Source: an uncultured Gammaproteobacteria bacterium
GTDB taxonomy: Bacteria; Patescibacteriota; Patescibacteriia; Magasanikbacterales; GWA2-37-8
Reading direction: 5' to 3'
NCBI GenBank assembly: GCA_964510885.1
Contig: CAZEDL010000001.1
Span: 684 to 64,683, forward strand
Length of the DNA: 64,000 nt
Position 1 is the first letter of the stretch, and each line of letters begins with the position of its first letter. The notes beneath the pieces are model-generated. The model was not told the origin of the DNA. It was given only the letters and a program-made list of their open reading frames with translations, and searched no databases. The translations under genes and the position numbers were made by a program. Below, one piece after another: positions 16,386-48,319 of the stretch.

Positions 16386-16417
16386 AAAAAAATCCCGATA
16401 TATACTCGGGATTTTTT
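16386..16417. terminator. bidirectional rho-independent terminator after rplU
   Basis: aaaaaatcccga-tatatac-tcgggatttttt. Confidence 0.6.
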
Positions 16418-16991
16418 AATACATTTTTTTAATATTTTTTTGTTTTTCTTGCTTAATTTTTTCGGCTTGCCAACGTTTGGGACTGAAACAACTTTTGCTC
16501 TCCCAGCTAATCCCAAAGTTTGCTAAGAAGGTTCGCAGTGGGCCCGGTGGTTTAATTTTACAAATAGTTTCGGTTTCTGAGTAGAATAGGTCCGTTGGGA
16601 GGCCGTGGTCTTTCCAGGTTTGTTGAAGGTCTGTGAATTCACTGCGTGTTAGGTTTAAGGCCCAACAACAATTGTCATCGTAATGACTAAACGTGCTATC
16701 GGGATTACTTGGGTCGTTGCCAATGATAACTTTAAATAGATCGGGGGTGGCTGAGTTTGTATTGGTTTGTATCCACGTAAAAATTTCTGAAATAACTGCT
16801 TCTCTCTCAGCGGGGGTCCCAGTGAGGTCGCCAGATCTAGCTTCCTTCTTTGCACCTTTAAGTGGGTAGAGAATTTCGGCTTCGTAATAACTAGCCGTGC
16901 GACTGATATGCCCGGCAGTTATTTGGATAGCCTTAGGAAACTCGACACTCTTTTCATCAAAAAAATAATAGAGCTCGGGAAGATAGATCAT
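16416..16991 (-). CDS. hypothetical protein (191 aa from internal ATG), co-transcribed downstream of recR
   Basis: The ORF-track start overlaps recR. The ATG at 16991 (MIYLPELYYFF) lies 4 nt after the recR stop. Cys/Trp-containing, no recognised family. Confidence 0.5.
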   Translation of the reverse strand: MIYLPELYYFFDEKSVEFPKAIQITAGHISRTASYYEAEILYPLKGAKKEARSGDLTGTPAEREAVISEIFTWIQTNTNSATPDLFKVIIGNDPSNPDSTFSHYDDNCCWALNLTRSEFTDLQQTWKDHGLPTDLFYSETETICKIKPPGPLRTFLANFGISWESKSCFSPKRWQAEKIKQEKQKNIKKMY

Positions 16992-16995
16992 AGAT

Positions 16996-17595
16996 TTATT
17001 TTTCCGTTCGGCCTTTGAGGGCATTGCCGAGGGTGATTTCGTCGGCATATTGAAGGTCGCTGCCCATGGGGAGGCCGCGGGCAAGGCGGGTGATTTTTAG
17101 GTCGGGTTTTAGTTTTTTGATCTGTTGTTCCAGATATAGCCGAGTGGTTTCTCCGGGAAGGTCGGGATTCAAAGCGATGATTATTTCTTGCGGCGTTTCA
17201 GCGGTAACTCTTTTCAGAAGTTCTAGAATCTTGGTTTTATCGAGTTCGTCTTGATCGAGCGAATCGATCGTGCCGCGCAGCACATGATAGCGGCCTTTAT
17301 ATTGTTTAGTTTTTTCGAGAGCCACGAGTTCGGGTGGATTGGCTACCACGCAGATCATGGCGGCGTCTCGGCTTGCATCAGCGCAAATGGGGCAGGGATT
17401 ACTGTCGGAAAAATCCCAGCAGGTTTCGCAGCTTTTTACGTTGTCTATTACTTCTTTAAGGGCGATGAGGAGCTCCGTGGCTTCTTTTTTGCCTGATTTA
17501 AGCCAGTGAAATAAAAATTTTTCCGCCGTGTGTTGTCCAACGGTGGGGAGTTTTTTGAGTTGTTTGAGAAGGCTTTGGATGGAAGGACTATACAT
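16996..17595 (-). CDS. recR: recombination protein RecR
   Basis: HhH region (LPTVGQHTAEKF), C4 zinc finger CETC...CPIC, Toprim region RGLPMGSDLQYADEITLGNAL; start taken at MYSPSIQ, abutting the stop of the upstream gene. Confidence 0.9.
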   Translation of the reverse strand: MYSPSIQSLLKQLKKLPTVGQHTAEKFLFHWLKSGKKEATELLIALKEVIDNVKSCETCWDFSDSNPCPICADASRDAAMICVVANPPELVALEKTKQYKGRYHVLRGTIDSLDQDELDKTKILELLKRVTAETPQEIIIALNPDLPGETTRLYLEQQIKKLKPDLKITRLARGLPMGSDLQYADEITLGNALKGRTEK

Positions 17596-17596
17596 G

Positions 17597-18865
17597 TTAA
17601 ACGCGAGAAAGATCGGTATGAGCAAATTTTTTAATTTGATCCATAGCTTTTTTAGCGACTGCTCTATCTTCGTTAATTATCCAGTGGGCAGCAGGAAACA
17701 AGGTTGATTTCATGCCCTCTGTATCAGGATCAAACTCTAATTCTAATCTTTTAAGCACTTCCGATTCTTCAATGTGGCCAGCTTCAAATTCATCCATGGC
17801 ATGATCGTATTCGTTTAAAAATTCTCTAAAATTCTGCTGAATCGTAGAAATTTTTGCTCGAAATTCTTGTTCTGATGTCTTTATCAGTTTTAGGAGGGCT
17901 GCAGAAATTTGCGAGTCTGGCTCAGTTTCGGCAGCTTTTATTGCTTGGTCAGAAAAAAATTGAATTTTTTTATCAATGGTTGCTTTAAGATTTTCGAATG
18001 GATCGCTGAACAGTTCTTGCTCAGTATTAAGATATGTAAAATTAGCTCGGGCTACTTCGCTTAGGTCGTAGGTGAGCTGCATGACTTCGTTAGCGATGAT
18101 CAGGGCGGAAGTAATTGTTTCGGGAGATCGAGCAGTTATTTTTTCATATATATATCCCTGATTATGTTCAGGTTCGTTTTGACCAGGCTTTCTTTTGCTA
18201 ATAGTTGCTTCTTTTAATCCTAATAATTCCAACAAAGCTTTATTGGTTGCTGGCCAATCTCGTTGGTGGAGTAGGGGTTGTTCTTCAAAAACCAAAAAAC
18301 CTCCTTCAGCTACTTGGAGATAATTCTCTTTGTCTAAACGATGGTTTATACCTGGGAAGATTTTTTCTTGGCCGGATTCGTCGCTCAAGCGAAGATCTTG
18401 TCCAGCTCCGGTTGGTGCGTACACATACCAGAGATCCACTTTTTTTCCTCCCCTTTTTTTTTCATCTACCAAACGTGCGTCCATGGTCAGCTCTGTTACG
18501 GTCCGTAGTTCACCCGCAAATTCAAAATTAAATATACGAGTCTGCGGTTCGGGTGTGGTAGTAGTATAAGGAATGCCTAATTGTTGAAGTTCGTTTGCAA
18601 AGCTACGCTCCACTGTGATGGTGTGGTCACAGTAGATAAATCTTTTTAAGTTAAAGGCTAAAAAAACTCGGAATGCATCTCCTCCGCACGCTGGATAATA
18701 CCCCGATTTAGGGGGGTGTTCAGCGGTAGCATCACGGGTTGATTCAATATTAGCCTTAAGTATAGATGGAGAAATGTTTCTGTTTTTGGCGATTAGTTCA
18801 ACCGCTTGTTGTAGTTGGTGGTGGCGCGATTCATTATCTAAAAATAACCTTGACTCTTGGTTCAT
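17597..18865 (-). CDS. hypothetical 422-aa protein inserted between ybaB and recR
   Basis: Long ORF, translationally coupled to recR (stop at 17597, recR start at 17595); no recognisable motifs. Confidence 0.6.
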   Translation of the reverse strand: MNQESRLFLDNESRHHQLQQAVELIAKNRNISPSILKANIESTRDATAEHPPKSGYYPACGGDAFRVFLAFNLKRFIYCDHTITVERSFANELQQLGIPYTTTTPEPQTRIFNFEFAGELRTVTELTMDARLVDEKKRGGKKVDLWYVYAPTGAGQDLRLSDESGQEKIFPGINHRLDKENYLQVAEGGFLVFEEQPLLHQRDWPATNKALLELLGLKEATISKRKPGQNEPEHNQGYIYEKITARSPETITSALIIANEVMQLTYDLSEVARANFTYLNTEQELFSDPFENLKATIDKKIQFFSDQAIKAAETEPDSQISAALLKLIKTSEQEFRAKISTIQQNFREFLNEYDHAMDEFEAGHIEESEVLKRLELEFDPDTEGMKSTLFPAAHWIINEDRAVAKKAMDQIKKFAHTDLSRV

Positions 18866-37957: not shown

Positions 37958-38536
37958 ATGCCCACCCCGGCCCACCTAAACGCCATCATGCAATTTTATC
38001 GCCGCCATAAACGCTTACCATCATATCGTGAAATGTTGCCGCTGACTGGTTTTAAATCCACCAATGCCGTCTTCAGGCTGGTCGAAAAATATATTGCGGC
38101 TGGTTGGCTACACCGGGATAGTGCTGGCAAACTCTCTCCGGGTCGCCGGTTTCTTGGGGTGCCGCTGCTTGGTTCGGTTGCTGCCGGTTGGCCGTCGCCC
38201 GCCGAAGAAGAGTTGGTGGATACCATGACTCTTGATGAATGGTTGATTGGCAATCGCCAGGCCACCTTTATGCTCAAAGTCTCAGGTGATTCCATGATCG
38301 ATGCTGGCATTAAGCCTGGAGACACCATTTTGGTGGAGCGCGGCCGCACTCCCAAAAATGGCGATATTGTGGTGGCGGAAGTTGATAATCAGTGGACGCT
38401 CAAATATTTTCAAAAACACCGTGAACAAGTGGTACTCGTGCCCGCTAACAAAAAATATCACCCCATTATTCCTAAACAAGAATTGAATATTGCCGCCGTA
38501 GTTACCGCCGTGATCCGCAAATATCACATGGTATGA
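37958..38536 (+). CDS. lexA: SOS repressor LexA (S24 peptidase)
   Basis: N-terminal wHTH, cleavage-site region VAAGWPSPAEE, catalytic VSGDSMIDAGI (Ser) and K in IVVAEVDNQWTLKYF; start set at MPTPAHL. Confidence 0.9.
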   Translation: MPTPAHLNAIMQFYRRHKRLPSYREMLPLTGFKSTNAVFRLVEKYIAAGWLHRDSAGKLSPGRRFLGVPLLGSVAAGWPSPAEEELVDTMTLDEWLIGNRQATFMLKVSGDSMIDAGIKPGDTILVERGRTPKNGDIVVAEVDNQWTLKYFQKHREQVVLVPANKKYHPIIPKQELNIAAVVTAVIRKYHMV

Positions 38537-39846
38537 CGGAGCTAGGCTCAATTCCGACAGCTGTTTCTTCTCGCGCCATCATTCATATCGATGGCGACTC
38601 TTTTTTTGCCAGCTGCGAACAGGCTCGTAATCCGCAATTACGTGGTAAGCCAGTCATTACCGGGAAAGAGCGGGGGATAGCGGCCTCTATGAGTTACGAA
38701 GCCAAAGCGCGGGGTGTAACGCGAGCCATGCCGTTATTCGAAATTAAACGCCTCTGCCCCGATGCTGTATTTTTGCCTTCAGATTATGAGATGTATAGCC
38801 TGATGTCGCATCATTTTTATGACATCGTGCGGCGCTACACCGGTTGCATTGAAGAATATGGCATCGATGAATGCTTTGGCGAACTCACCGGGCTTGAAGC
38901 CTCATTTCATAAAAAGTATCAGCAATTAATCGAAGAATTACGAGCTGAACTCAAACGTGAACTCGGCTGCACTTTTTCAGTTGGTCTTGGGCCCAATAAA
39001 ACTTTGGCCAAACTGGGGTCTAATTGGAAAAAACCATACGGTCTCACCACTATAACCCCCGACACCATTGCGGATTTTTTAAAAACTCTGCCGGTGGAAA
39101 AAATTTGGGGTATTGGTCGGCGCACTACCGCTTTTTTAAATACGCAAGGAATTACGACTGCCGGTGAGTTTGCTGCCCAAACAGAATCATGGATAAAACA
39201 AAATCGAACCCGCCCATTTCATGATATTTGGCGTGAACTCCATGGGGAAATGGTTATCCCACTTTATTATGAAGAAAAACGCCAATACCATTCTATCCAG
39301 AAATTCAAAACCTTCAGCCCACCCTCGCGCGACCCAGATTTTATTTTTGCCCAGTTATCAAAAAATATTGAAAACGCGTGCATTAAACTGCGCCGGTATA
39401 ACCAAGCGACACCAAGCGTTTATATCATTTTGCGTACCCAAGATTTTCGCCACCATACCGTGGAAGTACCACTCCTGAGGCCTACCAACTTACCACCCGA
39501 AATTATCCCTCTGGTGCGGCCAGCTTTTCTTAAATTATTCAAAAAACAACTCTATCGCGCCACCGGCATCGTATTTTTCAATCTTACTCCCATGGTGGTA
39601 CAAGCAGATTTATTCGGTGCCACCGAGCGGGTGGAGAAATTGCAGCGCCTCTATGCCAGCGCCGATGCCGTGGCTAAGAAATATGGCAAGCACACACTGT
39701 TCCTTGGGACCAGTTGGCGAGCTCAGCGGTTTAAAGCACATCTCACTGCGCGAGGCGATGAACCCGTTCGAACTTCTACATTACTTAAAGGAGAAACCAA
39801 GCGTAAACGCCTGGGAATCCCAATGTTATTCGGAGGAACGGTGTAA
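38533..39846 (+). CDS. dinB: Y-family DNA polymerase (DinB/Pol IV-like)
   Basis: IHIDGDSFFASCEQ (catalytic D), IDECFGELTG (DE), little-finger region; 4-nt overlap with lexA. Confidence 0.8.
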   Translation: MTELGSIPTAVSSRAIIHIDGDSFFASCEQARNPQLRGKPVITGKERGIAASMSYEAKARGVTRAMPLFEIKRLCPDAVFLPSDYEMYSLMSHHFYDIVRRYTGCIEEYGIDECFGELTGLEASFHKKYQQLIEELRAELKRELGCTFSVGLGPNKTLAKLGSNWKKPYGLTTITPDTIADFLKTLPVEKIWGIGRRTTAFLNTQGITTAGEFAAQTESWIKQNRTRPFHDIWRELHGEMVIPLYYEEKRQYHSIQKFKTFSPPSRDPDFIFAQLSKNIENACIKLRRYNQATPSVYIILRTQDFRHHTVEVPLLRPTNLPPEIIPLVRPAFLKLFKKQLYRATGIVFFNLTPMVVQADLFGATERVEKLQRLYASADAVAKKYGKHTLFLGTSWRAQRFKAHLTARGDEPVRTSTLLKGETKRKRLGIPMLFGGTV

Positions 39847-39928
39847 TAGATCTATCAAACATTGACGAAATAGATTTAATAAGTTCTACTATCCACTAAC
39901 CCCAAAGTTTGGAGGGAGAAAAGAAAGC

Positions 39929-40381
39929 ATGTTAGAAAGAAGGAAGCACCCGCGCTTAGAAATGCATTTGGTTGGTAATAAGCCAGCCGCCGTGTTCATG
40001 GTGATTGTGAAGGAGGGGGAAGAGGACAAGGCGATCTTCCTGCTTATTTGCCACGACATCCATAGTTTGAATGAAGCCCTAAACCAGTGCACTGATCTGG
40101 CTAAGGCTGAGATTCAGGCGCTAGCAGACTTCGCTGCGCGCTCTGGCTTGCCGGCAAGTTCCGAAGAAGACATGGTGTGGTTTGATAACCCCCATCTTGC
40201 CCATATCGTGGCACTCGGCTTCCAGGCTCAAAGCAGTAAAATGATTTTGATGCTCGACCAGGAGGATACAAAAATCCTTCCAATAGAACCCGAAGCTTCG
40301 GAGACAGATCCAGAGGATGATGACCCGCTGGCCACCTACAGGATGTTTCATTCCAGGGCTACGGGAAAGGCCACGTCTTGA
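39929..40381 (+). CDS. hypothetical acidic protein (150 aa)
   Basis: GGAGGGA SD 8 nt upstream of ATG; moderately GC-rich; acidic C-terminus; no recognised family. Confidence 0.4.
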   Translation: MLERRKHPRLEMHLVGNKPAAVFMVIVKEGEEDKAIFLLICHDIHSLNEALNQCTDLAKAEIQALADFAARSGLPASSEEDMVWFDNPHLAHIVALGFQAQSSKMILMLDQEDTKILPIEPEASETDPEDDDPLATYRMFHSRATGKATS

Positions 40382-40490
40382 TCTTGCTCTGGCTTGCCGC
40401 CACCGTCTCTATATTGTGGGCTACAGGAGGTTCTCCACCTGGCGCCCGTCCCATGGTTACAAGTTCTTTTAGCCATCGGACGCCTCAGGT

Positions 40491-40531
40491 GGACATTAAA
40501 AAACCCGGATACACCCGGGTTTTTAATGTCC
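40491..40531. terminator. bidirectional rho-independent terminator
   Basis: ggacattaaaaaacccgg-atacac-ccgggtttttaatgtcc, an 18-bp perfect stem. Confidence 0.7.
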
Positions 40532-40550
40532 ATTGCTTGTAATAAAGTAA

Positions 40551-41021
40551 CTAACGGTGTTTTTCAATGAACGCTTGTTTGGCCGCCTGCATACGGGTGC
40601 CCAGCTCAAGCAGTGCCTGAGGATCAAGAATTTTACGACATTCCGGAAACATATACTCTTCTTCCTCTTTCAGATGATGCTCGGTATTTTCTTTCATCAC
40701 TTTAAATTTAGCGGTCCATTGTTCATTCTGGTAGTCTTCATGTGCCAGCTTGTTAAGCAGATCGCTCATTACCGCATGCTCTTCAATTCCTTCGAGAGTA
40801 ATTTTATGAATACCTTTCAGAGCTTGGATCGCTGGATAAAAAACAGTTTCTTCAATATGGGAATGTGCGTCAAGGGCTAATTTGAGCCGTGCAAATTCAT
40901 ACTGCCGGGTCACTGCAGCTTTTTCGGTAGTCGCAGCTATTTTTTCGAGCAGGGCTTTGAATTGTTGATGGTCTGTTTCCAAAAATTCGATAGCATCAAT
41001 TGCTTTACCAGTGTGGGTCAT
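40551..41021 (-). CDS. hemerythrin-like HHE cation-binding domain protein
   Basis: HxxxE/HxxxH spacing (LETDHQQF, HSHIEETVFYP, EEHAVMSD, HHLKEEEEYMFPE). Confidence 0.75.
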   Translation of the reverse strand: MTHTGKAIDAIEFLETDHQQFKALLEKIAATTEKAAVTRQYEFARLKLALDAHSHIEETVFYPAIQALKGIHKITLEGIEEHAVMSDLLNKLAHEDYQNEQWTAKFKVMKENTEHHLKEEEEYMFPECRKILDPQALLELGTRMQAAKQAFIEKHR

Positions 41022-41187
41022 ACATTCAATATTAAAAATAAAATCACTCAGCCTACTTCTACCTTAGGCCGTAGATCATGAGCTGTCAATTGGTTTAGTA
41101 ACGTGAGCCGCTCAATTACTGGATAGGGGCTCTGTACAGAGCGTGTATATGTGCTAGAGTAAAAATAAACATCATAATTCCTGCGCT

Positions 41188-41715
41188 ATGCAAAAATTAC
41201 CAACTCTTAAAACAGAGTCTCAAGAAAAGAATGAGCGGCTAGAATTTGTACTAGCTATAATTTTTGTAGGTATAGTGCTCGTACCAGGGTACCTATTAGA
41301 CCTCGATTTTGACCTTATACTTAGGAGCCTTACCTGGTTCGATTTTGTTATTATTGTGCTAGCTGTGTTTCGCCTTACTCGATTATTTGTCTATGACGGT
41401 ATCATGGCGTATCTGCGCAGCTGTGTGTTGATTAAAGAGATGGGTGCTACTGACATGTCCGATCAGGCAACAGTAGTATATACCTACCCTAAGGTAGGAC
41501 TGCGCAAAATCCTAGCCGATTTACTGGCCTGCCCGTGGTGTGTCGGCATGTGGCTCTCGGCACTTGTCATCATCCTGTTCTATGCTGTTCCAGTGAGTAA
41601 GTTTTTCATACTAATTTTAGCCGTAGCTGGCCTCAGTACTTTTTGTCAAATAATTAGCAACGCGATCGGCTGGAAAGCTGAAAAAGAAAAATTAATTGTA
41701 CAAGCTAAACAGTAA
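41188..41715 (+). CDS. DUF1360 domain membrane protein
   Basis: LLACPWCVGMWLSALV signature with flanking TM helices. Confidence 0.7.
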   Translation: MQKLPTLKTESQEKNERLEFVLAIIFVGIVLVPGYLLDLDFDLILRSLTWFDFVIIVLAVFRLTRLFVYDGIMAYLRSCVLIKEMGATDMSDQATVVYTYPKVGLRKILADLLACPWCVGMWLSALVIILFYAVPVSKFFILILAVAGLSTFCQIISNAIGWKAEKEKLIVQAKQ

Positions 41716-41741
41716 TCATTCCTGTTTCCGACACTATCAAA

Positions 41742-42327
41742 GTGCCATTCACCACCCAGGCTCCGGCTGTAGAGTGGTCCGAGCTCTGGCAAAATGCCTG
41801 TGAAGCAACCTCAATCTATAGGATCAATAGTTTTTATGCTCAAGATGAGATTAAACGGGATGAAGCTGTTCGGCACATCAAAGAGATTGTAGGGATAAAA
41901 AATAAAGCGTTTAAAGTCAGCGCCGATGAATCATTACAAAAAATTTCTGACCTCAGCAACGCCCTTGAGCTGCCCTGGACTACCGTTATAAAAGAAAATC
42001 CTACCACTGCTGAGTTAAAAGTTGAATTAAGTGCCCATCGACCGATCATTGTCCCGGTCTATACGCCAGCCCTTCAAAGCTCTAATTATACGAGCGGCGG
42101 CCCTGACTATCATGTTAGGGTAATGACGGGGGTATGATGATAAGGCCGGTGTCTTCATAGTCAATGATCCAGGAACAGTGAACAATCAAAAAGTCTTGTT
42201 TAAATACGATCTATTTATGGCCGCCGTTCATGATCTGAACTCTAAAGATTATAAAGCTGGAAGGCCAACTGTCTTACTGTCTTATATACCCTGCAATCAA
42301 GCGATAGTAGCTGGTTATCAGATCTGA
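41742..42327 (+). pseudogene. C39-like (BtrH/peptidase_C39_2-like) cysteine peptidase gene interrupted by a +1 frameshift in a G5 run
   Basis: Frame 0 gives ...WQNACEATSIY (Q..C..S Cys motif) ... DYHVRVMTGV-stop. Frame +1 continues YDDKAGVFIVNDPGT...KYDLFMAAVHDL to the stop at 42325-42327. Deleting one G at 42128-42132 gives HVRVMTGYDDKAGVFIVNDPG. Confidence 0.6.
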
Positions 42328-42416
42328 TTAAAAAATAAGCGTAGGCCAAATACTTATATAGTAGGTAAGATATAATTTTGTCTGCTTCTGTGATATAGTA
42401 AATAATCTGTATACCT

Positions 42417-43301
42417 ATGAAAAAAATTTTTACTCTCAGTTTTTGCCTAATATTACTAAGCGGAGCTGGTTGTGGTAGAAGTGCTGACCTCGACATTGCT
42501 CACCAAAGCCATCCGGCTAGTAATGCAATTTTTAACCTTACACCTACAGGTTCAGTTTCAGTATTAAAACCAGGCACACCTGCTCGTTTTTCTTTTTCGA
42601 TTACCAATAATAGCGGCCAAGTAATTAAAGATTTTTCGCTCACACACGAAAAACTTCTCCACCTGATTGTAGTTAGCCGCGACTTGGCATCATTTCAGCA
42701 TCTGCATCCCGACTATGACAAAACTACCGGAGCATTCACTATCCCGGATCTGATGTTTGGGTCAGCTGGGCGCTGGCTCCTATTTGCTGATTTTTCTCCA
42801 GCCGGCAGCGGATTAGATGCTCACGGTAATCCAATTACTAAGCTGGCTAAACTAGATATTACCGTAGGAGAAGAAAGTGAGTATAAAGAGGCGCCGTTAG
42901 GCGGGGAGGAACGCACTAAAAAGTTCGGCACATACGAAGTTTCGCTCCGTACCGAACCTGCCGCAATAGTGGTTGGTTCTGAAACAGAGTTAGAATTTAC
43001 CCTAAAACAAAATGGCCGCCCCCTAACAAATCTCGAGCCATATCTCGGAGCGCGCGGCCACTCGGTAATCTTAAGAGCTGATACGCTTGAGTATATACAC
43101 ACTCACCCTCACGAAGGGCCAGGTGCGCCGGGAGACGGCAAGGTGATCTTTACTACCAGGTTTGATCGCGCCGGCCGTTATAAGCTGTTTACCCAGTTTA
43201 AACATCAAGGAAAAATTATCACGACTGATTTTGTGGTCTCGGTCAGTCCTGCAACAGCCGGAGCTAAGCCGGCTACCGACCATGCATCAATGCACCACTA
43301 A
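42417..43301 (+). CDS. lipoprotein with His-rich putative metal-binding beta-sandwich domain
   Basis: Lipobox LLSGAG-C; HTHPHEGPG and C-terminal DHASMHH; cupredoxin/YtkA-like pattern suspected but not established. Confidence 0.6.
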   Translation: MKKIFTLSFCLILLSGAGCGRSADLDIAHQSHPASNAIFNLTPTGSVSVLKPGTPARFSFSITNNSGQVIKDFSLTHEKLLHLIVVSRDLASFQHLHPDYDKTTGAFTIPDLMFGSAGRWLLFADFSPAGSGLDAHGNPITKLAKLDITVGEESEYKEAPLGGEERTKKFGTYEVSLRTEPAAIVVGSETELEFTLKQNGRPLTNLEPYLGARGHSVILRADTLEYIHTHPHEGPGAPGDGKVIFTTRFDRAGRYKLFTQFKHQGKIITTDFVVSVSPATAGAKPATDHASMHH

Positions 43302-43309
43302 AGATTGGT

Positions 43310-44254
43310 TTAGAGCGCCCGGTCTAACGCCAAACGAGTTAACAGTGCAGCGCACGCTTCGATATAAGGCCGAGCTAATGGTTCGGCAATTGGGTCGCTA
43401 AAGCCGGGGCGGGAATTTAATTCGATTAGTTTGTAACCGTCCGTCGTATTCATAAAATCCATGGAGTATACCGATGGGGAATACTTTTTTAGCTGTTCGC
43501 TGATACTGACAACTAGGGGAGTCACCGCCGTTGGCAGCCGATCAATCGGAAACATATATTCAGTTCCTCCTTGGGCCACATTGGCAAGCAGCGATCCGCT
43601 GCGCGGAGCACGAACCGTTAATTGCACCAAACGATCTGCCGCTGAAATGATACGCAGATCATGCCGCCCTTCGATCAAGCCAGGAATTCCAAGCGAACTA
43701 TCAAAAAATTCCTGCACCAGGGTACCCTCCCAACTAGGATAAATTTCTCGCGGTAATTCTGCAGTTGGCCGGATAAATATGCCATCTCCACCACATAAAA
43801 AATTTTGTTTCACCACTACTCGATCTGATGCCTGTATTTTCCAAGCCGCTACAGTAGCTAAAAATTCTTCATAAGACGATACCAGCTTGGTTCGAGGCGA
43901 CATATCAGCAAATGCCTGTGCGGTGGCCCATTTATCCACGCATAATTCATCAAGGTCTGGGTTATTTACAATCATGCAATCAGTAATGCGAGGAATAGTA
44001 TTTTGATCATCTCGATTAAAAATAACTTTCACAGTAACTGGAGTGACAGGAGCTGAGAGCATGCCGTTTTTTAATTCATATCCGATCGAAAAAGTTCCGG
44101 CACCACGATAGCTATCGGCTCGCACAATAAATGCAGAGACTCCCGCTTTATTTAGCTGCTCTGCCAAGTGGCAGTAGGCATTCCAATACATCAGTTTATC
44201 AAGCGGGTAGCCTTTTGGCTCCGGAGCCGAAAAATAAATCCCAATCGCTGGCAT
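43310..44254 (-). CDS. ATP-grasp fold ligase (RimK/YheCD-like)
   Basis: C-terminal ATP-grasp signature YSMDFMNTTDGYKLIELNSRPGFS, central KQNFLCGGDGIFI; divergent from the 7TM gene. Confidence 0.7.
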   Translation of the reverse strand: MPAIGIYFSAPEPKGYPLDKLMYWNAYCHLAEQLNKAGVSAFIVRADSYRGAGTFSIGYELKNGMLSAPVTPVTVKVIFNRDDQNTIPRITDCMIVNNPDLDELCVDKWATAQAFADMSPRTKLVSSYEEFLATVAAWKIQASDRVVVKQNFLCGGDGIFIRPTAELPREIYPSWEGTLVQEFFDSSLGIPGLIEGRHDLRIISAADRLVQLTVRAPRSGSLLANVAQGGTEYMFPIDRLPTAVTPLVVSISEQLKKYSPSVYSMDFMNTTDGYKLIELNSRPGFSDPIAEPLARPYIEACAALLTRLALDRAL

Positions 44255-44333
44255 AAATAGTAAATTAAAAGTAGTTGTATCTTAACTCCAACAGGAGTAC
44301 CCTATGAGTAGGTTTTATTTTTAAAAAATCGCT

Positions 44334-45884
44334 ATGAAAAATATTTCATACCGCAGATTTTTTCAGATAATCGGCAGTGCAATCATACTTCTACATACTA
44401 CGATACTCCCAAATCCAGTCGGAGCGCAAACGATCATCTCCGCTCCTGGCGAACAATTAGATAAAAATCTACAGATCATCAGTGATGAGGAAGTGGCCCT
44501 GGGAAACAAAACTATCTTTCGGGCCTCAGCGTCGGTTGCCACCACTTCGTCTCTTAATTATACCTGGCAATTTAGCGATGGGCAGAATCAGATCGAGCAT
44601 GGGGTTGAAGCTGCCCATTCCTTTGATACCACGGGTATTCATACCGTTACCGTTCGGATAACTGCCCCCAATATTAGTGAGCAAATTAGTAAGGATATTT
44701 TTGTTTACAATAAAAAAATCTTCCTGATTACTGGTTCCAATCAAACCGGAAATGCAGGCGCCACTTTAGACCAGCTTAAAACAGCCGCCACTGACGAGCA
44801 AAACTCGCTTGAAATTCTAGAAGTAGACACCGACAGCAGCATCTTCGTGACCGAAGATCGCCTGCTTACCCTGTTCGAGCGCAGCGGCCAATCCCTGGCC
44901 GCAGCCGATATGATTATTTTTGATGTGCCCGCTGCTCGTGGCAGCCAAGCCTTTGCCCGGTACATCCACTCGGTATCGGAAGAATTACAAGAAAAATTTA
45001 CTCATCCCTTATACATAAATATCACCCCGCGCGATTTTAATGATCTGCGGTTTTTATTACAGCAGGTTAGCCGGGTTATCCGTCCTGATATGCTGCTGCT
45101 GATGCATCCGCCAGCACTCGAATACTTGGTAACTGCCACCAACTACGGACAATTAACTACGGCACTGAGAGCAACCGACGTGCCGTATCTGCAAATTACA
45201 GCGTCGGATAGCGGGCCGCTCTGGCACGGGTTATGGAAATTATTGTCCGTATTTGTATCACAAGGGATCTCTGTCAGTGTTATTTACCTTATCCTGATCA
45301 TCCCCTTAATTGTTCTCGTTACCGTGTTTGCTCGCCAAGTGCTCGGCATGCCCACGTTTGGAGTGTATGGGCCAGTAATGACCGCCGCCTCGTTTTTAAT
45401 GCTAGGCCTTAAACTCGGCCTCTTGGTATTCTGTTTTGTCATAGTGGTCACCTATTGCGTCAAATTTATTATCAATCGGGCTAAATTGCTGTACATCTCC
45501 AAAGTGGGTCTTAATCTGAGTTTGCTCAGTGCGTCATTTTTATTTTTGATCTGGGTAATTGGTGTAACCCGCAGCTCCATTTCCTTGTCATTGGCTATCT
45601 TTCCCATGCTCCTTATGGCCACCGTGGCCGAGAAATTCATTGCCGCCCAATCTGAAGAAGGGTTTCGTCAAGCCATCTTGGCTGTGATTTCGACCACCAC
45701 CATCATTGTGGTAAGTTTTTTAGCGGTCACCCATATCGCAGTCGTAACCTTTGTTCAGTCCTGGCCTGAAATCATTTTGCTGGCCATTCTGTTCACCTTT
45801 ATTCTCGGTAAATTTACTGGCCTACGCCTTGATGAATATATTCGCTTCCGCACCCTCTTGCGAGATAACGGAACTGAAGAATAA
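44334..45884 (+). CDS. membrane protein: signal peptide, PKD domain, unknown periplasmic domain, C-terminal 7TM bundle (7TM_transglut-like)
   Basis: PKD motif NYTWQFSDGQ...HSF..TGIHTVTVRI; seven predicted TM helices from about aa 290-500. Confidence 0.7.
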   Translation: MKNISYRRFFQIIGSAIILLHTTILPNPVGAQTIISAPGEQLDKNLQIISDEEVALGNKTIFRASASVATTSSLNYTWQFSDGQNQIEHGVEAAHSFDTTGIHTVTVRITAPNISEQISKDIFVYNKKIFLITGSNQTGNAGATLDQLKTAATDEQNSLEILEVDTDSSIFVTEDRLLTLFERSGQSLAAADMIIFDVPAARGSQAFARYIHSVSEELQEKFTHPLYINITPRDFNDLRFLLQQVSRVIRPDMLLLMHPPALEYLVTATNYGQLTTALRATDVPYLQITASDSGPLWHGLWKLLSVFVSQGISVSVIYLILIIPLIVLVTVFARQVLGMPTFGVYGPVMTAASFLMLGLKLGLLVFCFVIVVTYCVKFIINRAKLLYISKVGLNLSLLSASFLFLIWVIGVTRSSISLSLAIFPMLLMATVAEKFIAAQSEEGFRQAILAVISTTTIIVVSFLAVTHIAVVTFVQSWPEIILLAILFTFILGKFTGLRLDEYIRFRTLLRDNGTEE

Positions 45885-45926
45885 GACATGTCACGGAGCG
45901 TAACATGTCCTGAAATTGCGTCGCTC

Positions 45927-45958
45927 GACCCTAGTAACTGTAAACAGTTACTAGGGTC
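45927..45958 (+). promoter_or_regulatory. 14-bp perfect stem hairpin between 7TM gene and ATP-grasp/QEGLA gene (attenuator-like, no U-tract)
   Basis: gaccctagtaactg-taaa-cagttactagggtc. Confidence 0.5.
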
Positions 45959-45976
45959 TCACTAGCATTATAACTT

Positions 45977-48319
45977 ATGGGATGGCTTGATTCGTCTCGA
46001 AAAATTTTAGGCATGAACGCGCGTAATTTACTCTATATTGATGAGTATAATAGCCGCGCGCATAAACGCTTTGCCGATGACAAACTGTTTACTAAACAGT
46101 ATTTATCATCGCGCGGTATTGGCGTTGCCAAGCTCTATGGAGTAATTAAAACCCCGGGTGAACTGCGGGTTTTTAATCCCGATTCGCTACCCAAGACCTT
46201 TGTAATCAAGCCCAACCGCGGCTTTGGTGGCGAAGGAATTATTGTCATTGACGATCGTCAAGGGGGTATTTTTATTGATGCCGCCGGCGAGCGCCATACC
46301 TGGCAAGAATTATCGCTGCACATGGTGTCTATTCTCGAAGGAAAATACTCAATTTCAGGTATCCGTGATCAGGCCTTGCTTGAAGAACGTCTGCTGCCCG
46401 CTGAATTTCTGAGCCCCTATATCACCAAAGGTTTGCCAGATATTCGCATTATTGTGTTTAAGTTAGTACCGGTTATTGCCATGTTACGCCTGCCGACCCG
46501 AGATTCGCACGGCAAAGCTAATTTACATATGGGCGCCCTCGGGGTAGGCCTTGATATCGCCACGGGGAGAGCCAGCTTCGCCGTATCAAAAGGACAATTT
46601 GTCACTGCCTTGCCGAGCGGCCTGCCGGTAAAAGATATAAAAATGAAACAATGGGATGAGGTGCTGATGACGGCTATACAAGCCGCGCATCTCAGCAAGA
46701 TCGGATTTGTAGCGGTAGATATTGTTGCCACGTCAACCGGCGTAAAAATCCTTGAGCTTAATGCGCGCCCCGGCTTGTCAGTTCAGATAGCTAATCAAAT
46801 CCCGTTGAGGCAGCGCCTGGAACAGATCAGTGATAGTAAAGTCAATACCCCCGAACAAGGCTTATCTATTTGTCGTGCTTTATTTGGCAGTGGTCGTACT
46901 ACCACTGGGAAGCCCGCTGCCGCCAAAACTATTATCTCGCCCTATGAAGATGTGCTCTTATTGTCAGAACCCGAACAGATGATCCGGGCCCGGATCGACC
47001 CAGCCGCTGAAAAAAATACTATCTCTACGCGCTATTTAGGAGCCAAAACCAACGAACATATCACAGTAAAATTAAAAGGCAAGCGGTTGGTGTTACCAGT
47101 AGCAGTCACAGAATTTTCAACTGACACAGCCTATGACCTGATCGTTGCCGGCAAATTTCTAACTGATTTTTTAATTGATCCGAGCTTGAAACTAGAAGAG
47201 AGACAGATAGTGAGCGATCTACATCACGTCACTTCAGAGCGTAACGAGCGAATCCTTCGCAGTATTGATAAGCGGTTGGGTGTTATTGACCGATCCTTAC
47301 ATGTACTCAGAGCACTCCGTCCACTGAATGCGAAACAGGCCAAAGAGATGTTTTTCGCCAATCCAGACAGCTCACCTATTTTTGCCTATGCTCCAGCTCC
47401 CGCTAATCTTCCCAAATTAGAAAAAGAACTGTTTACGTTGCCGTCGGTGCCCGATCATCCGCTTCGTCTCTTGTACACCAACAAAATTGCCGCCCTAAAA
47501 ACAGCCATTGAGTTAATAAAATATCATGATAGTGAGCGACTGACAGAGTTGTCGAGCACGTTATTTGGCCCGATCAGTGCCGAGATCTACCAGGCGGCCT
47601 GCCGGTCGTATGAAGAAACCATCATTCACGAAGATCACAGTGAATTATTAACCACCTCAAATATCGTCAAATACCTGGAGGAGTTTTTTGCCAATCGCAA
47701 TCTGACTCAGTGGAAAGTGATGGTGAGCGAGCACTGCACCGCCGATATAGCCGTCTCTAAAAAACGCAGTGTGATTCTCAAAGCCGGCGTGTCCTTTACT
47801 GCCAATCGGCTACGCAGTGTGATCATGCATGAAATCATGACCCACGCCTATCGGTTTGAAAACGGTGAACGGCAGAAGTATGGGTTGTTTGCACTCGGCA
47901 CAGCCGGGTATCTGGCCACCGAAGAAGGCTTGGCCATTTATAATCAGAAAAAATTAGGCGTCCCACTCGGGGAACGTGACGTAGTGCCACCCTTACATTG
48001 TATTGCAGCGTATCTCGGACTAGAGCATTCTTTTGCCGAAGTATTCGCGCTTCTCAAAACCATCTATGGCGTCAGCGACGAATTAGCCTGGAAGGTATGT
48101 CTGCGCTCGAAACGTGGCCTCACCAATACAGCTGCGCCAGTCGTATGCATGCGCGATACGGCCTATTACCGTGGCTATCGCGCCGTAAAAAAGTATATCG
48201 ATGCAACCGGTGAAAGTGGTTTAAAGCAGCTCTACATAGGTAAGATCAGTTTGGAAGATATACCATCATTAGAAAATTTGTCGCTCGAAGCGCCTACGCT
48301 CTTGCCAAATTTTTCATAA
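45977..48319 (+). CDS. fusion protein: N-terminal alpha-L-glutamate-ligase-like (sugar-transfer-associated) ATP-grasp plus C-terminal DUF1704/QEGLA-motif domain with HExxH
   Basis: N-terminal KILGMNARNLLYI..., ATP-grasp core VKILELNARPGLSV; C-terminal HEIMTHAYRFENG (HExxH) then TEEGLAIYNQ (QEGLA-like); 780 aa. Confidence 0.75.
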   Translation: MGWLDSSRKILGMNARNLLYIDEYNSRAHKRFADDKLFTKQYLSSRGIGVAKLYGVIKTPGELRVFNPDSLPKTFVIKPNRGFGGEGIIVIDDRQGGIFIDAAGERHTWQELSLHMVSILEGKYSISGIRDQALLEERLLPAEFLSPYITKGLPDIRIIVFKLVPVIAMLRLPTRDSHGKANLHMGALGVGLDIATGRASFAVSKGQFVTALPSGLPVKDIKMKQWDEVLMTAIQAAHLSKIGFVAVDIVATSTGVKILELNARPGLSVQIANQIPLRQRLEQISDSKVNTPEQGLSICRALFGSGRTTTGKPAAAKTIISPYEDVLLLSEPEQMIRARIDPAAEKNTISTRYLGAKTNEHITVKLKGKRLVLPVAVTEFSTDTAYDLIVAGKFLTDFLIDPSLKLEERQIVSDLHHVTSERNERILRSIDKRLGVIDRSLHVLRALRPLNAKQAKEMFFANPDSSPIFAYAPAPANLPKLEKELFTLPSVPDHPLRLLYTNKIAALKTAIELIKYHDSERLTELSSTLFGPISAEIYQAACRSYEETIIHEDHSELLTTSNIVKYLEEFFANRNLTQWKVMVSEHCTADIAVSKKRSVILKAGVSFTANRLRSVIMHEIMTHAYRFENGERQKYGLFALGTAGYLATEEGLAIYNQKKLGVPLGERDVVPPLHCIAAYLGLEHSFAEVFALLKTIYGVSDELAWKVCLRSKRGLTNTAAPVVCMRDTAYYRGYRAVKKYIDATGESGLKQLYIGKISLEDIPSLENLSLEAPTLLPNFS

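Follow-up and report, generated by a model that had tools for sequence, protein, structure and literature searches.

The locus described here lies in a 64-kb stretch of DNA, which we refer to throughout as the window and which is 91% coding and holds 66 ORFs. Next to an intact gene for a DUF1360 membrane protein, the window carries peptidase-like sequence that is divided between two reading frames (Table 1). The 131-aa ORF at 41742-42137 ends in ...GGPDYHVRVMTGV (...DYHVRVMTGV) and is followed at once by TGA TGA TAA, a GGGGG run lies shortly before its end, and the +1 frame reads on as YDDKAGVFIVNDPG..., (R)GYDDKAGVFIVNDPGTVNNQKVLFKYDLFMAAVHDL... and (R)GYDDKAGVFIVNDPGTVNNQKVLFKYDLFMAAVHDLNSKDYKAGRPTVLLSY... 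to a stop at 42325-42327. All of these elements, which the original prediction had reported with their coordinates, were reproduced by direct reading of the sequence. Deletion of one G from the run gives a continuous frame of 585 nt and 194 codons (194 aa), which has no internal stop and keeps every catalytic residue.

Table 1. Features of the peptidase locus and of the gene upstream of it (positions in the window)
Feature	Start	End	Strand	Remarks
Intact DUF1360 membrane-protein gene	41188	41715	+	Pfam DUF1360, 68 bits, residues 55-155
Linker remnant TVIIPVSDTIK	41709	41741	+	In frame, no start codon; TAA at 41706-41708 just upstream
5' two-thirds of the probable peptidase pseudogene	41742	42131	+	Frame of the 131-aa ORF; invariant Q6, catalytic C20 (WQNACE), H124 (DYHV)
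G5 run, frameshift site	42128	42132	+	One base extra relative to the family frame, ACG GGG [G] TAT = T-G-Y
3' third of the probable pseudogene	42133	42327	+	+1 frame, YDDKAGVFIVNDPG...HDL...; N141/D142 region, invariant HD motif
TGA TGA TAA, stops closing the 131-aa ORF	42135	42143	+	Read directly from the sequence

The position of the lesion was examined by tblastn of six homologues against the window. Each gave two collinear high-scoring pairs, one spanning 41709/41721-42131 and the other 42130-42282 in the next frame, with joint E-values of 1e-17 to 1e-61, so that the split-frame pattern is far beyond chance. The frame switches at the family-invariant Gly of a (T/V/I)-G-Y-D motif, inside the G run, and alignment and translation place the lesion in the same run to which it had originally been assigned. 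Three homologue loci (L002-L004) have a single Gly codon at this site, in the contexts ACG GGC TAC, ACT GGT TAC, and GTC GGC TAT, and the most parsimonious lesion is therefore a change from ACG GGG TAT to ACG GGG G TAT. The triple stop corresponds to the conserved Y-D-D-K codons TAT GAT GAT AAG read one base off register; it is thus neither a designed nor an independent feature.

The residues predicted to form the active site are present on both sides of this lesion. The expected oxyanion-hole Gln (Q6), C20, H124, and N141/D142 are each invariant in an alignment of 21 sequences. The catalytic-Cys motif and the His box that had been recognized from the sequence correspond to C20 in WQNACE and to H124 followed by GYDD...VNDP, respectively. 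H124 and N141/D142 are nevertheless encoded in different reading frames of the DNA, and the frameshift leaves the catalytic Cys and His on one side and the Asn/Asp region on the other and, judged from the structural model described below, would remove three C-terminal beta-strands.

The assignment of the locus to a family of C39-like, papain-fold cysteine peptidases was borne out by profile, homologue, and structure searches. The conceptually repaired 194-aa protein matches Pfam Peptidase_C39_2 (PF13529) with 39.8 bits over profile positions 3-142 of 143, well above the gathering score of 24 bits, whereas the native 131-aa product reaches 19.1 bits and stays under this cut-off. The DNA is therefore derived from the family, and the product that it encodes does not qualify as a member. 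The repaired protein also matches Pfam Peptidase_C70 (32.8 bits), and a search of NCBIfam gave no match. About 95 close homologues were found in 5.8 billion proteins, with 43-63% identity and E-values as low as 1e-66; most come from Patescibacteria-type MAGs, and those that carry a name are called "C39 family peptidase" or "YvpB". All of them are single-frame and most are 215-230 aa long; 92 are full length and 3 are partial, broken at other places, so that none is split at the site of the window copy. Relatives are encoded at 480 loci in a set with one genome per GTDB species, with a top identity of 58%. Neither the genome from which the window comes nor any relative above that value was found in this set, and nearly all of the 80 loci listed show a single collinear tblastn match over query residues 1 to about 180. 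The genomic context of the homologues is not conserved; they are stand-alone lipoproteins of about 220 aa.

The repaired protein was modeled with AlphaFold2 from the homologue alignment, with a pLDDT of 79 and a pTM of 0.79. The top Foldseek matches of this model in the PDB all belong to papain-like clan CA, with probability 1.0 (2bu3, 2btw, 3erv, PeiR, and AvrRpt2). A profile search of PDB sequences returned nothing, and the relation to solved structures is therefore one of fold level only. No characterized close homologue was found by that search or by a search of the YvpB/C39 literature, which gave nothing useful, and look-ups of the exact products were empty for the 131-aa ORF, for the 294-aa lipoprotein encoded downstream, and for a guessed partial product of 42003-42137. 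The source gene belongs to a Peptidase_C39_2 subfamily that is common in Patescibacteria-type genomes; it is predicted to encode a papain-fold cysteine peptidase that is either secreted or anchored in the membrane.

Translation starts in the window share a distinct context. In the 43 long ATG-started ORFs (for example, those starting at 41188, 42417, and 44334), the base at -1 is T in 39, compared with about 28% T overall, and positions -13 to -4 are A/T-rich; GGAG, GAGG, or AGGA occurs within 20 nt upstream in only 4. This context may be a lineage-specific initiation signal or may reflect widespread short or absent leaders. The same ORFs end in TAA (36), TAG (5), or TGA (2). Recoding of TGA under genetic code 4 or 25 was considered and rejected, because a TAA follows at once and because two of the 43 ORFs, when checked under table 11, do end in TGA. 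Searches with Rfam at the gathering score and with ARAGORN found no tRNA, tmRNA, or Rfam family in the whole 64 kb.

The homology of the peptidase sequence does not begin at the GTG of the 131-aa ORF. The eleven residues encoded just upstream, TVIIPVSDTIK, align to the part of the homologues that links the signal peptide or lipobox to a VPF(T/S)xQ motif, and the tblastn matches start at 41709-41721, equivalent to homologue residues 22-27. Homologues have a nearly invariant Pro seven residues before the Val of VPF and an Ile or Val two residues before it (18 of 20 aligned sequences), and the window matches both positions with IPVSDTIK|VPF. Because homology continues upstream in this way, the presumed GTG start at 41742 is the codon for the conserved, invariant Val1 of the VPF(T/S)xQ motif and not an evolved initiation codon. 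It has an A at -1 and so lies outside the start context of the genome (ATG with T at -1 in 39 of 43 ORFs), and the frame contains no ATG before codon 128.

What should precede the linker is absent from the window. Upstream of VPF(T/S)xQ only 11 codons are open before the in-frame TAA at 41706-41708, whereas every full-length homologue in the alignment has 25-45 residues there. A hydrophobic N-terminal segment, either a signal or a lipoprotein anchor, is present in 87 of 90 homologues (median, 31 aa before VPF), and 60 of the 90 have a lipobox-like Cys. The three exceptions without a hydrophobic segment are short gene calls; in one of them (P0078), an in-frame lipoprotein signal peptide, MRNNFLVILLLFTVLSSC, lies upstream of the mis-called start. 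No hydrophobic or signal-like segment was found upstream in the window in any frame, except for the last helix of the DUF1360 protein itself. The window copy differs from functional members of the subfamily in that it has neither an uninterrupted ORF of 215-230 aa nor an N-terminal signal, lipobox, or transmembrane anchor.

The gene upstream marks where the peptidase sequence was cut. The C-terminus of the DUF1360 protein is conserved with its homologues to the last three or four residues before the stop that ends at 41715, which indicates that its 3' end is native, and its last codons overlap the linker remnant by 7 nt. Taken together, the point at which homology sets in, the native end of DUF1360, and the lack of a signal indicate that the peptidase gene has lost its start codon and signal peptide along with the intergenic region before them, and that the remnant starts at the stop of its neighbor. 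We also rejected a fusion of DUF1360 to the peptidase by a -1 shift at ...GCT AAA CAG TAA, since the site lacks a slippery heptamer, leaves a permissive window of only 4 nt, and would not remove the need for another shift at the G run.

Alternatively, the locus might encode a lineage-specific cytoplasmic variant that starts at GTG 41742 and lacks a signal, and that either was recently frameshifted or is intact if the extra G is erroneous. The retention of all catalytic residues and the lack of internal stops in the repaired frame would agree with such a variant, GTG is a legal start, and translation might conceivably be coupled to the DUF1360 stop, which lies 27 nt upstream. However, homology that runs upstream of the GTG as far as a stop codon points to truncation rather than to an evolved start, the A at -1 breaks the ATG/T(-1) rule of the genome, a start Met would replace the invariant Val1, and changes have occurred at P15, E22, and M27, which are nearly invariant and surround the catalytic Cys. 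We consider this variant very unlikely and the truncated pseudogene the better description of the locus.

The surroundings of DUF1360 are consistent with a breakpoint at this junction. Adjacency of DUF1360 and a peptidase gene was found neither in the synteny of two peptidase homologues nor in that of the nearest DUF1360 homologue (56% identity), and the ancestral 5' end therefore cannot be reconstructed. The nearest DUF1360 homologue lies in the order QueC-GST-SIMPL-DUF1360-glutaredoxin (L090, GCA_964585245.1, 2709-5796). The window shows partial synteny with this contig at 34206-37589, where the order is QueC-DUF4342-GST-SIMPL-glutaredoxin-PAP2. Its own DUF1360 gene lies 4.4 kb off, past genes for a LexA/UmuD-like S24 peptidase, a Y-family polymerase, a hypothetical protein, and a hemerythrin. 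Since the order differs from that in L090, the neighborhood of DUF1360 has been rearranged in the lineage of the window, which fits a breakpoint where DUF1360 meets the pseudogene. A scan for promoters and terminators around the locus gave nothing above shuffled expectation. Farther downstream, the window encodes a RimK-like ATP-grasp protein (43310-44254, minus strand), a membrane protein with PKD and 7TM_transglut domains (44334-45884), and a fusion protein of ATPgrasp_ST and a MATCAP-like domain of the tyrosine-carboxypeptidase family (45977-48319). The cluster at 43310-48319 resembles a module of peptide ligase plus peptidase.

The sequence that remains has also changed at positions that the family conserves. 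We counted deviations by a leave-one-out procedure in an alignment with 92 homologues and obtained z-scores by regression on overall divergence. At columns that are at least 90% conserved, the window copy deviates in 11 of 69 (homologue maximum, 10; z = 4.1); at columns at least 95% conserved, in 8 of 49 (homologue maximum, 5; z = 7.5); and at columns at least 98% conserved, in 5 of 33, where homologues deviate at 0-2 positions with a mean of 0.2 (z = 11.2). The changes are G10V, P15L, E22A, M27R, I72S, A108T, G148N, I162V, K175P, F179L, and T180S; some precede and others follow the frameshift, and the catalytic Cys is flanked by three of them. These counts indicate that constraint on the window copy is relaxed, although a divergent lineage, rather than neutrality, is in principle another source of the excess. 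The decay is moderate, because the repaired frame has no internal stop and retains all catalytic residues. No relative was found that is close enough for a dN/dS estimate or for reconstruction of the deletion, the best homologue having 62-63% identity and the next DUF1360 homologue 56%.

A homopolymer indel is a classic type of sequencing or assembly error, and the DNA of the organism might in fact have G4 and a continuous frame of 194 codons. That an assembly error can break a gene of this family is suggested by another contig with a coverage of 1.6x (L091), which holds a truncated copy with many short gene calls nearby. For the window, the indirect evidence speaks against an indel-prone assembly: no other split gene was found among the 66 ORFs, despite 58 G/C runs of at least 5 nt and about 490 A/T runs of 5-9 nt. 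No partial-domain fragments of split genes were found either, as the short and overlapping ORFs that were checked have a complete Pfam domain or no match. Moreover, a G4 version would still be without a start codon and signal peptide and would still carry changes at 5 of the 33 columns that are at least 98% conserved. An error would explain only one of the three lesions, and the corrected gene would therefore remain truncated and decaying. We regard an erroneous G as unlikely, though less so than the other alternatives discussed here, and sequencing error by itself, one of the causes first suggested for the split, does not account for the 5' loss or the changes at conserved sites. An eroding gene with a genuine extra G remains the reading that we prefer.

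A second assembly covers sequence on both sides of the G run. A Logan contig from run SRR16481186, made with another assembler, is 100% identical to the window over 38188-42030, and a second Logan contig of the same run encodes the exact 314-aa ATP-grasp product and spans 42666-45284 by gene coordinates. Neither of the two recovered contigs includes the segment at 42031-42665 (given as 636 bp), in which the G run and the beginning of the next gene lie; low coverage or strain variation may account for the gap. In JGI metagenome contigs, the site had 0 matches with G4, G5, or G6. In the 1.6x contig (ERZ2470813 NODE_300), the truncated copy (P0094) is a 157-aa version of P0078 among many calls of 45-96 aa. 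In a different assembly with the full-length P0078 (L004), the neighbors of the peptidase gene encode 166-457 aa, except for one gene of 86 aa. The truncation in L091 is probably a case of assembly error and shows, by comparison with the window, what an error-prone region looks like. Elsewhere in the window, at 16416-17625 (minus strand), an ORF of 222 aa that starts with TTG and has no Pfam match overlaps a complete RecR gene (16996-17625) by 89 nt; this is most likely an ORF whose start has been over-extended, not a second frameshift.

The G run might also serve as a slipped-strand contingency tract, a possibility raised at the outset, with G4 turning the peptidase on and G5 turning it off. 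Genes for surface and secreted proteins are often phase-variable, and the frameshift lies exactly within a mononucleotide run of such a gene. Contingency tracts, however, are usually 7-8 nt or longer, and this one has only 5 nt and is 1 of 58 G/C runs of at least 5 nt in the window. The homologues have varied Gly codons at the site and no conserved tract, and even the "on" state would have neither a start codon nor an export signal, as the gene is not otherwise intact. A switch built on a 5-nt tract in a gene that lacks a start is implausible, and we give it almost no weight.

Equally improbable is that the split is functional, either as a programmed +1 frameshift at ACG GGG G or as two separate polypeptides. 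A +1 slip would let the tRNA-Gly paired with GGG form a perfect match with the overlapping GGG, and stops follow two codons on. Yet a Val codon, GUA, stands between the GGG codon and the stop, so that the stop is not in the A site beside the slippery codon as it is in prfB, and a prfB-like frameshift is further disfavored because Shine-Dalgarno use is not seen in the genome. The recoding site is not conserved: the gene is split there in none of the roughly 95 homologues and in none of the complete loci L002-L004. As for two polypeptides, the upstream ORF has no credible start, the only start in the downstream part is GTG 42178, which would give 49 aa without the N141/D142 region, and the decay at conserved sites argues against selection.

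Family homology, a frameshift, the loss of the 5' end, and changes at conserved sites thus coincide at one locus. On the strength of these sequence comparisons, we conclude that 41709-42327 is probably a genuine but nonfunctional, eroding pseudogene, of the ordinary kind, of a Peptidase_C39_2 peptidase. A deletion would have removed the 5' end, taking away the intergenic region together with the start codon and about 25-30 codons of signal peptide or lipobox; replication slippage would have added one G at 42128-42132 (G4 to G5); and relaxed selection would have permitted substitutions at positions that other members conserve, with no order implied among the three. The locus should not give rise to a functional product; even if translation did begin at GTG 41742, the outcome would be no more than a 131-aa fragment in the cytoplasm. 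The original prediction of one gene of about 195 aa split by a single base does not hold, since members of the family are 215-230 aa long with a signal or lipobox, and both start and signal are missing here; the excess of substitutions at conserved positions likewise counters the idea that the gene is one base away from function. The suggestion of a recent pseudogenization fared better, because a pseudogene fits the data, but the event is probably not very recent.

We speculate, with very little expectation that it is so, that the remnant is cotranscribed with DUF1360, reinitiated at GTG 41742, and occasionally completed by a +1 slip of tRNA-Gly on GGG-G. If this were true, the locus would yield low levels of a signal-less, cytoplasmic papain-like enzyme, a recoded and relocalized variant of a peptidase that is normally extracytoplasmic. 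For the far more probable pseudogene, the consequences are practical. A single pseudogene is the appropriate annotation for 41709-42327, in place of a "C39 family peptidase" of 131 aa followed by a hypothetical ORF, and the locus should not figure among the functional proteases when metabolic or surface proteins of this genome are inventoried. As a case of gene erosion in a small, compact genome it is clear-cut, combining a deletion up to the stop of the neighboring gene with a homopolymer indel; its significance beyond annotation is slight.

The known systems closest to this locus are the Peptidase_C39_2 peptidases themselves. The likeness lies in the profile match of the repaired protein, in the invariant Gln, Cys, and His with the Asn-Asp region, and in the predicted papain-like fold, and one of the structures matched best by the repaired model is 3erv, a "putative C39-like peptidase" of Bacillus anthracis. 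The window copy differs from this family in being frameshifted, in lacking its 5' end, and in being mutated at conserved sites. Alr0975 (2bu3 and 2btw), a prokaryotic phytochelatin-synthase-like cysteine peptidase, the pseudomurein endoisopeptidase PeiR, and AvrRpt2 (C70) were matched by Foldseek with E-values of 5e-6 to 1e-3 and TM-scores of about 0.55; at 12-16% identity, the likeness to these clan CA structures is one of fold and catalytic architecture, not of family. The bacteriocin-processing C39 domains of ABC transporters (PF03412) belong to the same clan and share a papain-like Cys/His core, but PF03412 gave no match at E <= 1, and the homologues of the window copy stand alone. No ABC transporter is encoded among the neighbors scanned (41188-41715, 42417-43301, 43310-44254, 44334-45884, and 45977-48319), and a bacteriocin-leader C39 domain was rejected on these grounds.

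The most instructive comparison is with a second damaged copy of the same family in another Patescibacteria genome (L007, GCA_964355835.1, contig CAYHER010000003.1, 2900-3372; protein P0095). There, the lipoprotein signal peptide MRVHTVIALTTFLLLTGCG is followed directly by ...HPIIVPVYAPAL..., which is read in a different frame; about 95 codons, including that of the catalytic Cys, are deleted, and the frame changes at the deletion. The identical 123-aa product is found on contigs of at least three assembly records (L007-L009), namely, the two replicates Hain_H41 R1 and R2 and one MAG record, and a further contig (L040) is listed with the same remnant. The two pseudogenes show opposite patterns, as the L007 copy keeps the signal and loses the Cys, whereas the window copy loses the signal and keeps the catalytic core. 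Because the copies in the two genomes are damaged differently and independently, loss of this gene seems to recur, which hints that the lipoprotein peptidase is dispensable in some lineages.
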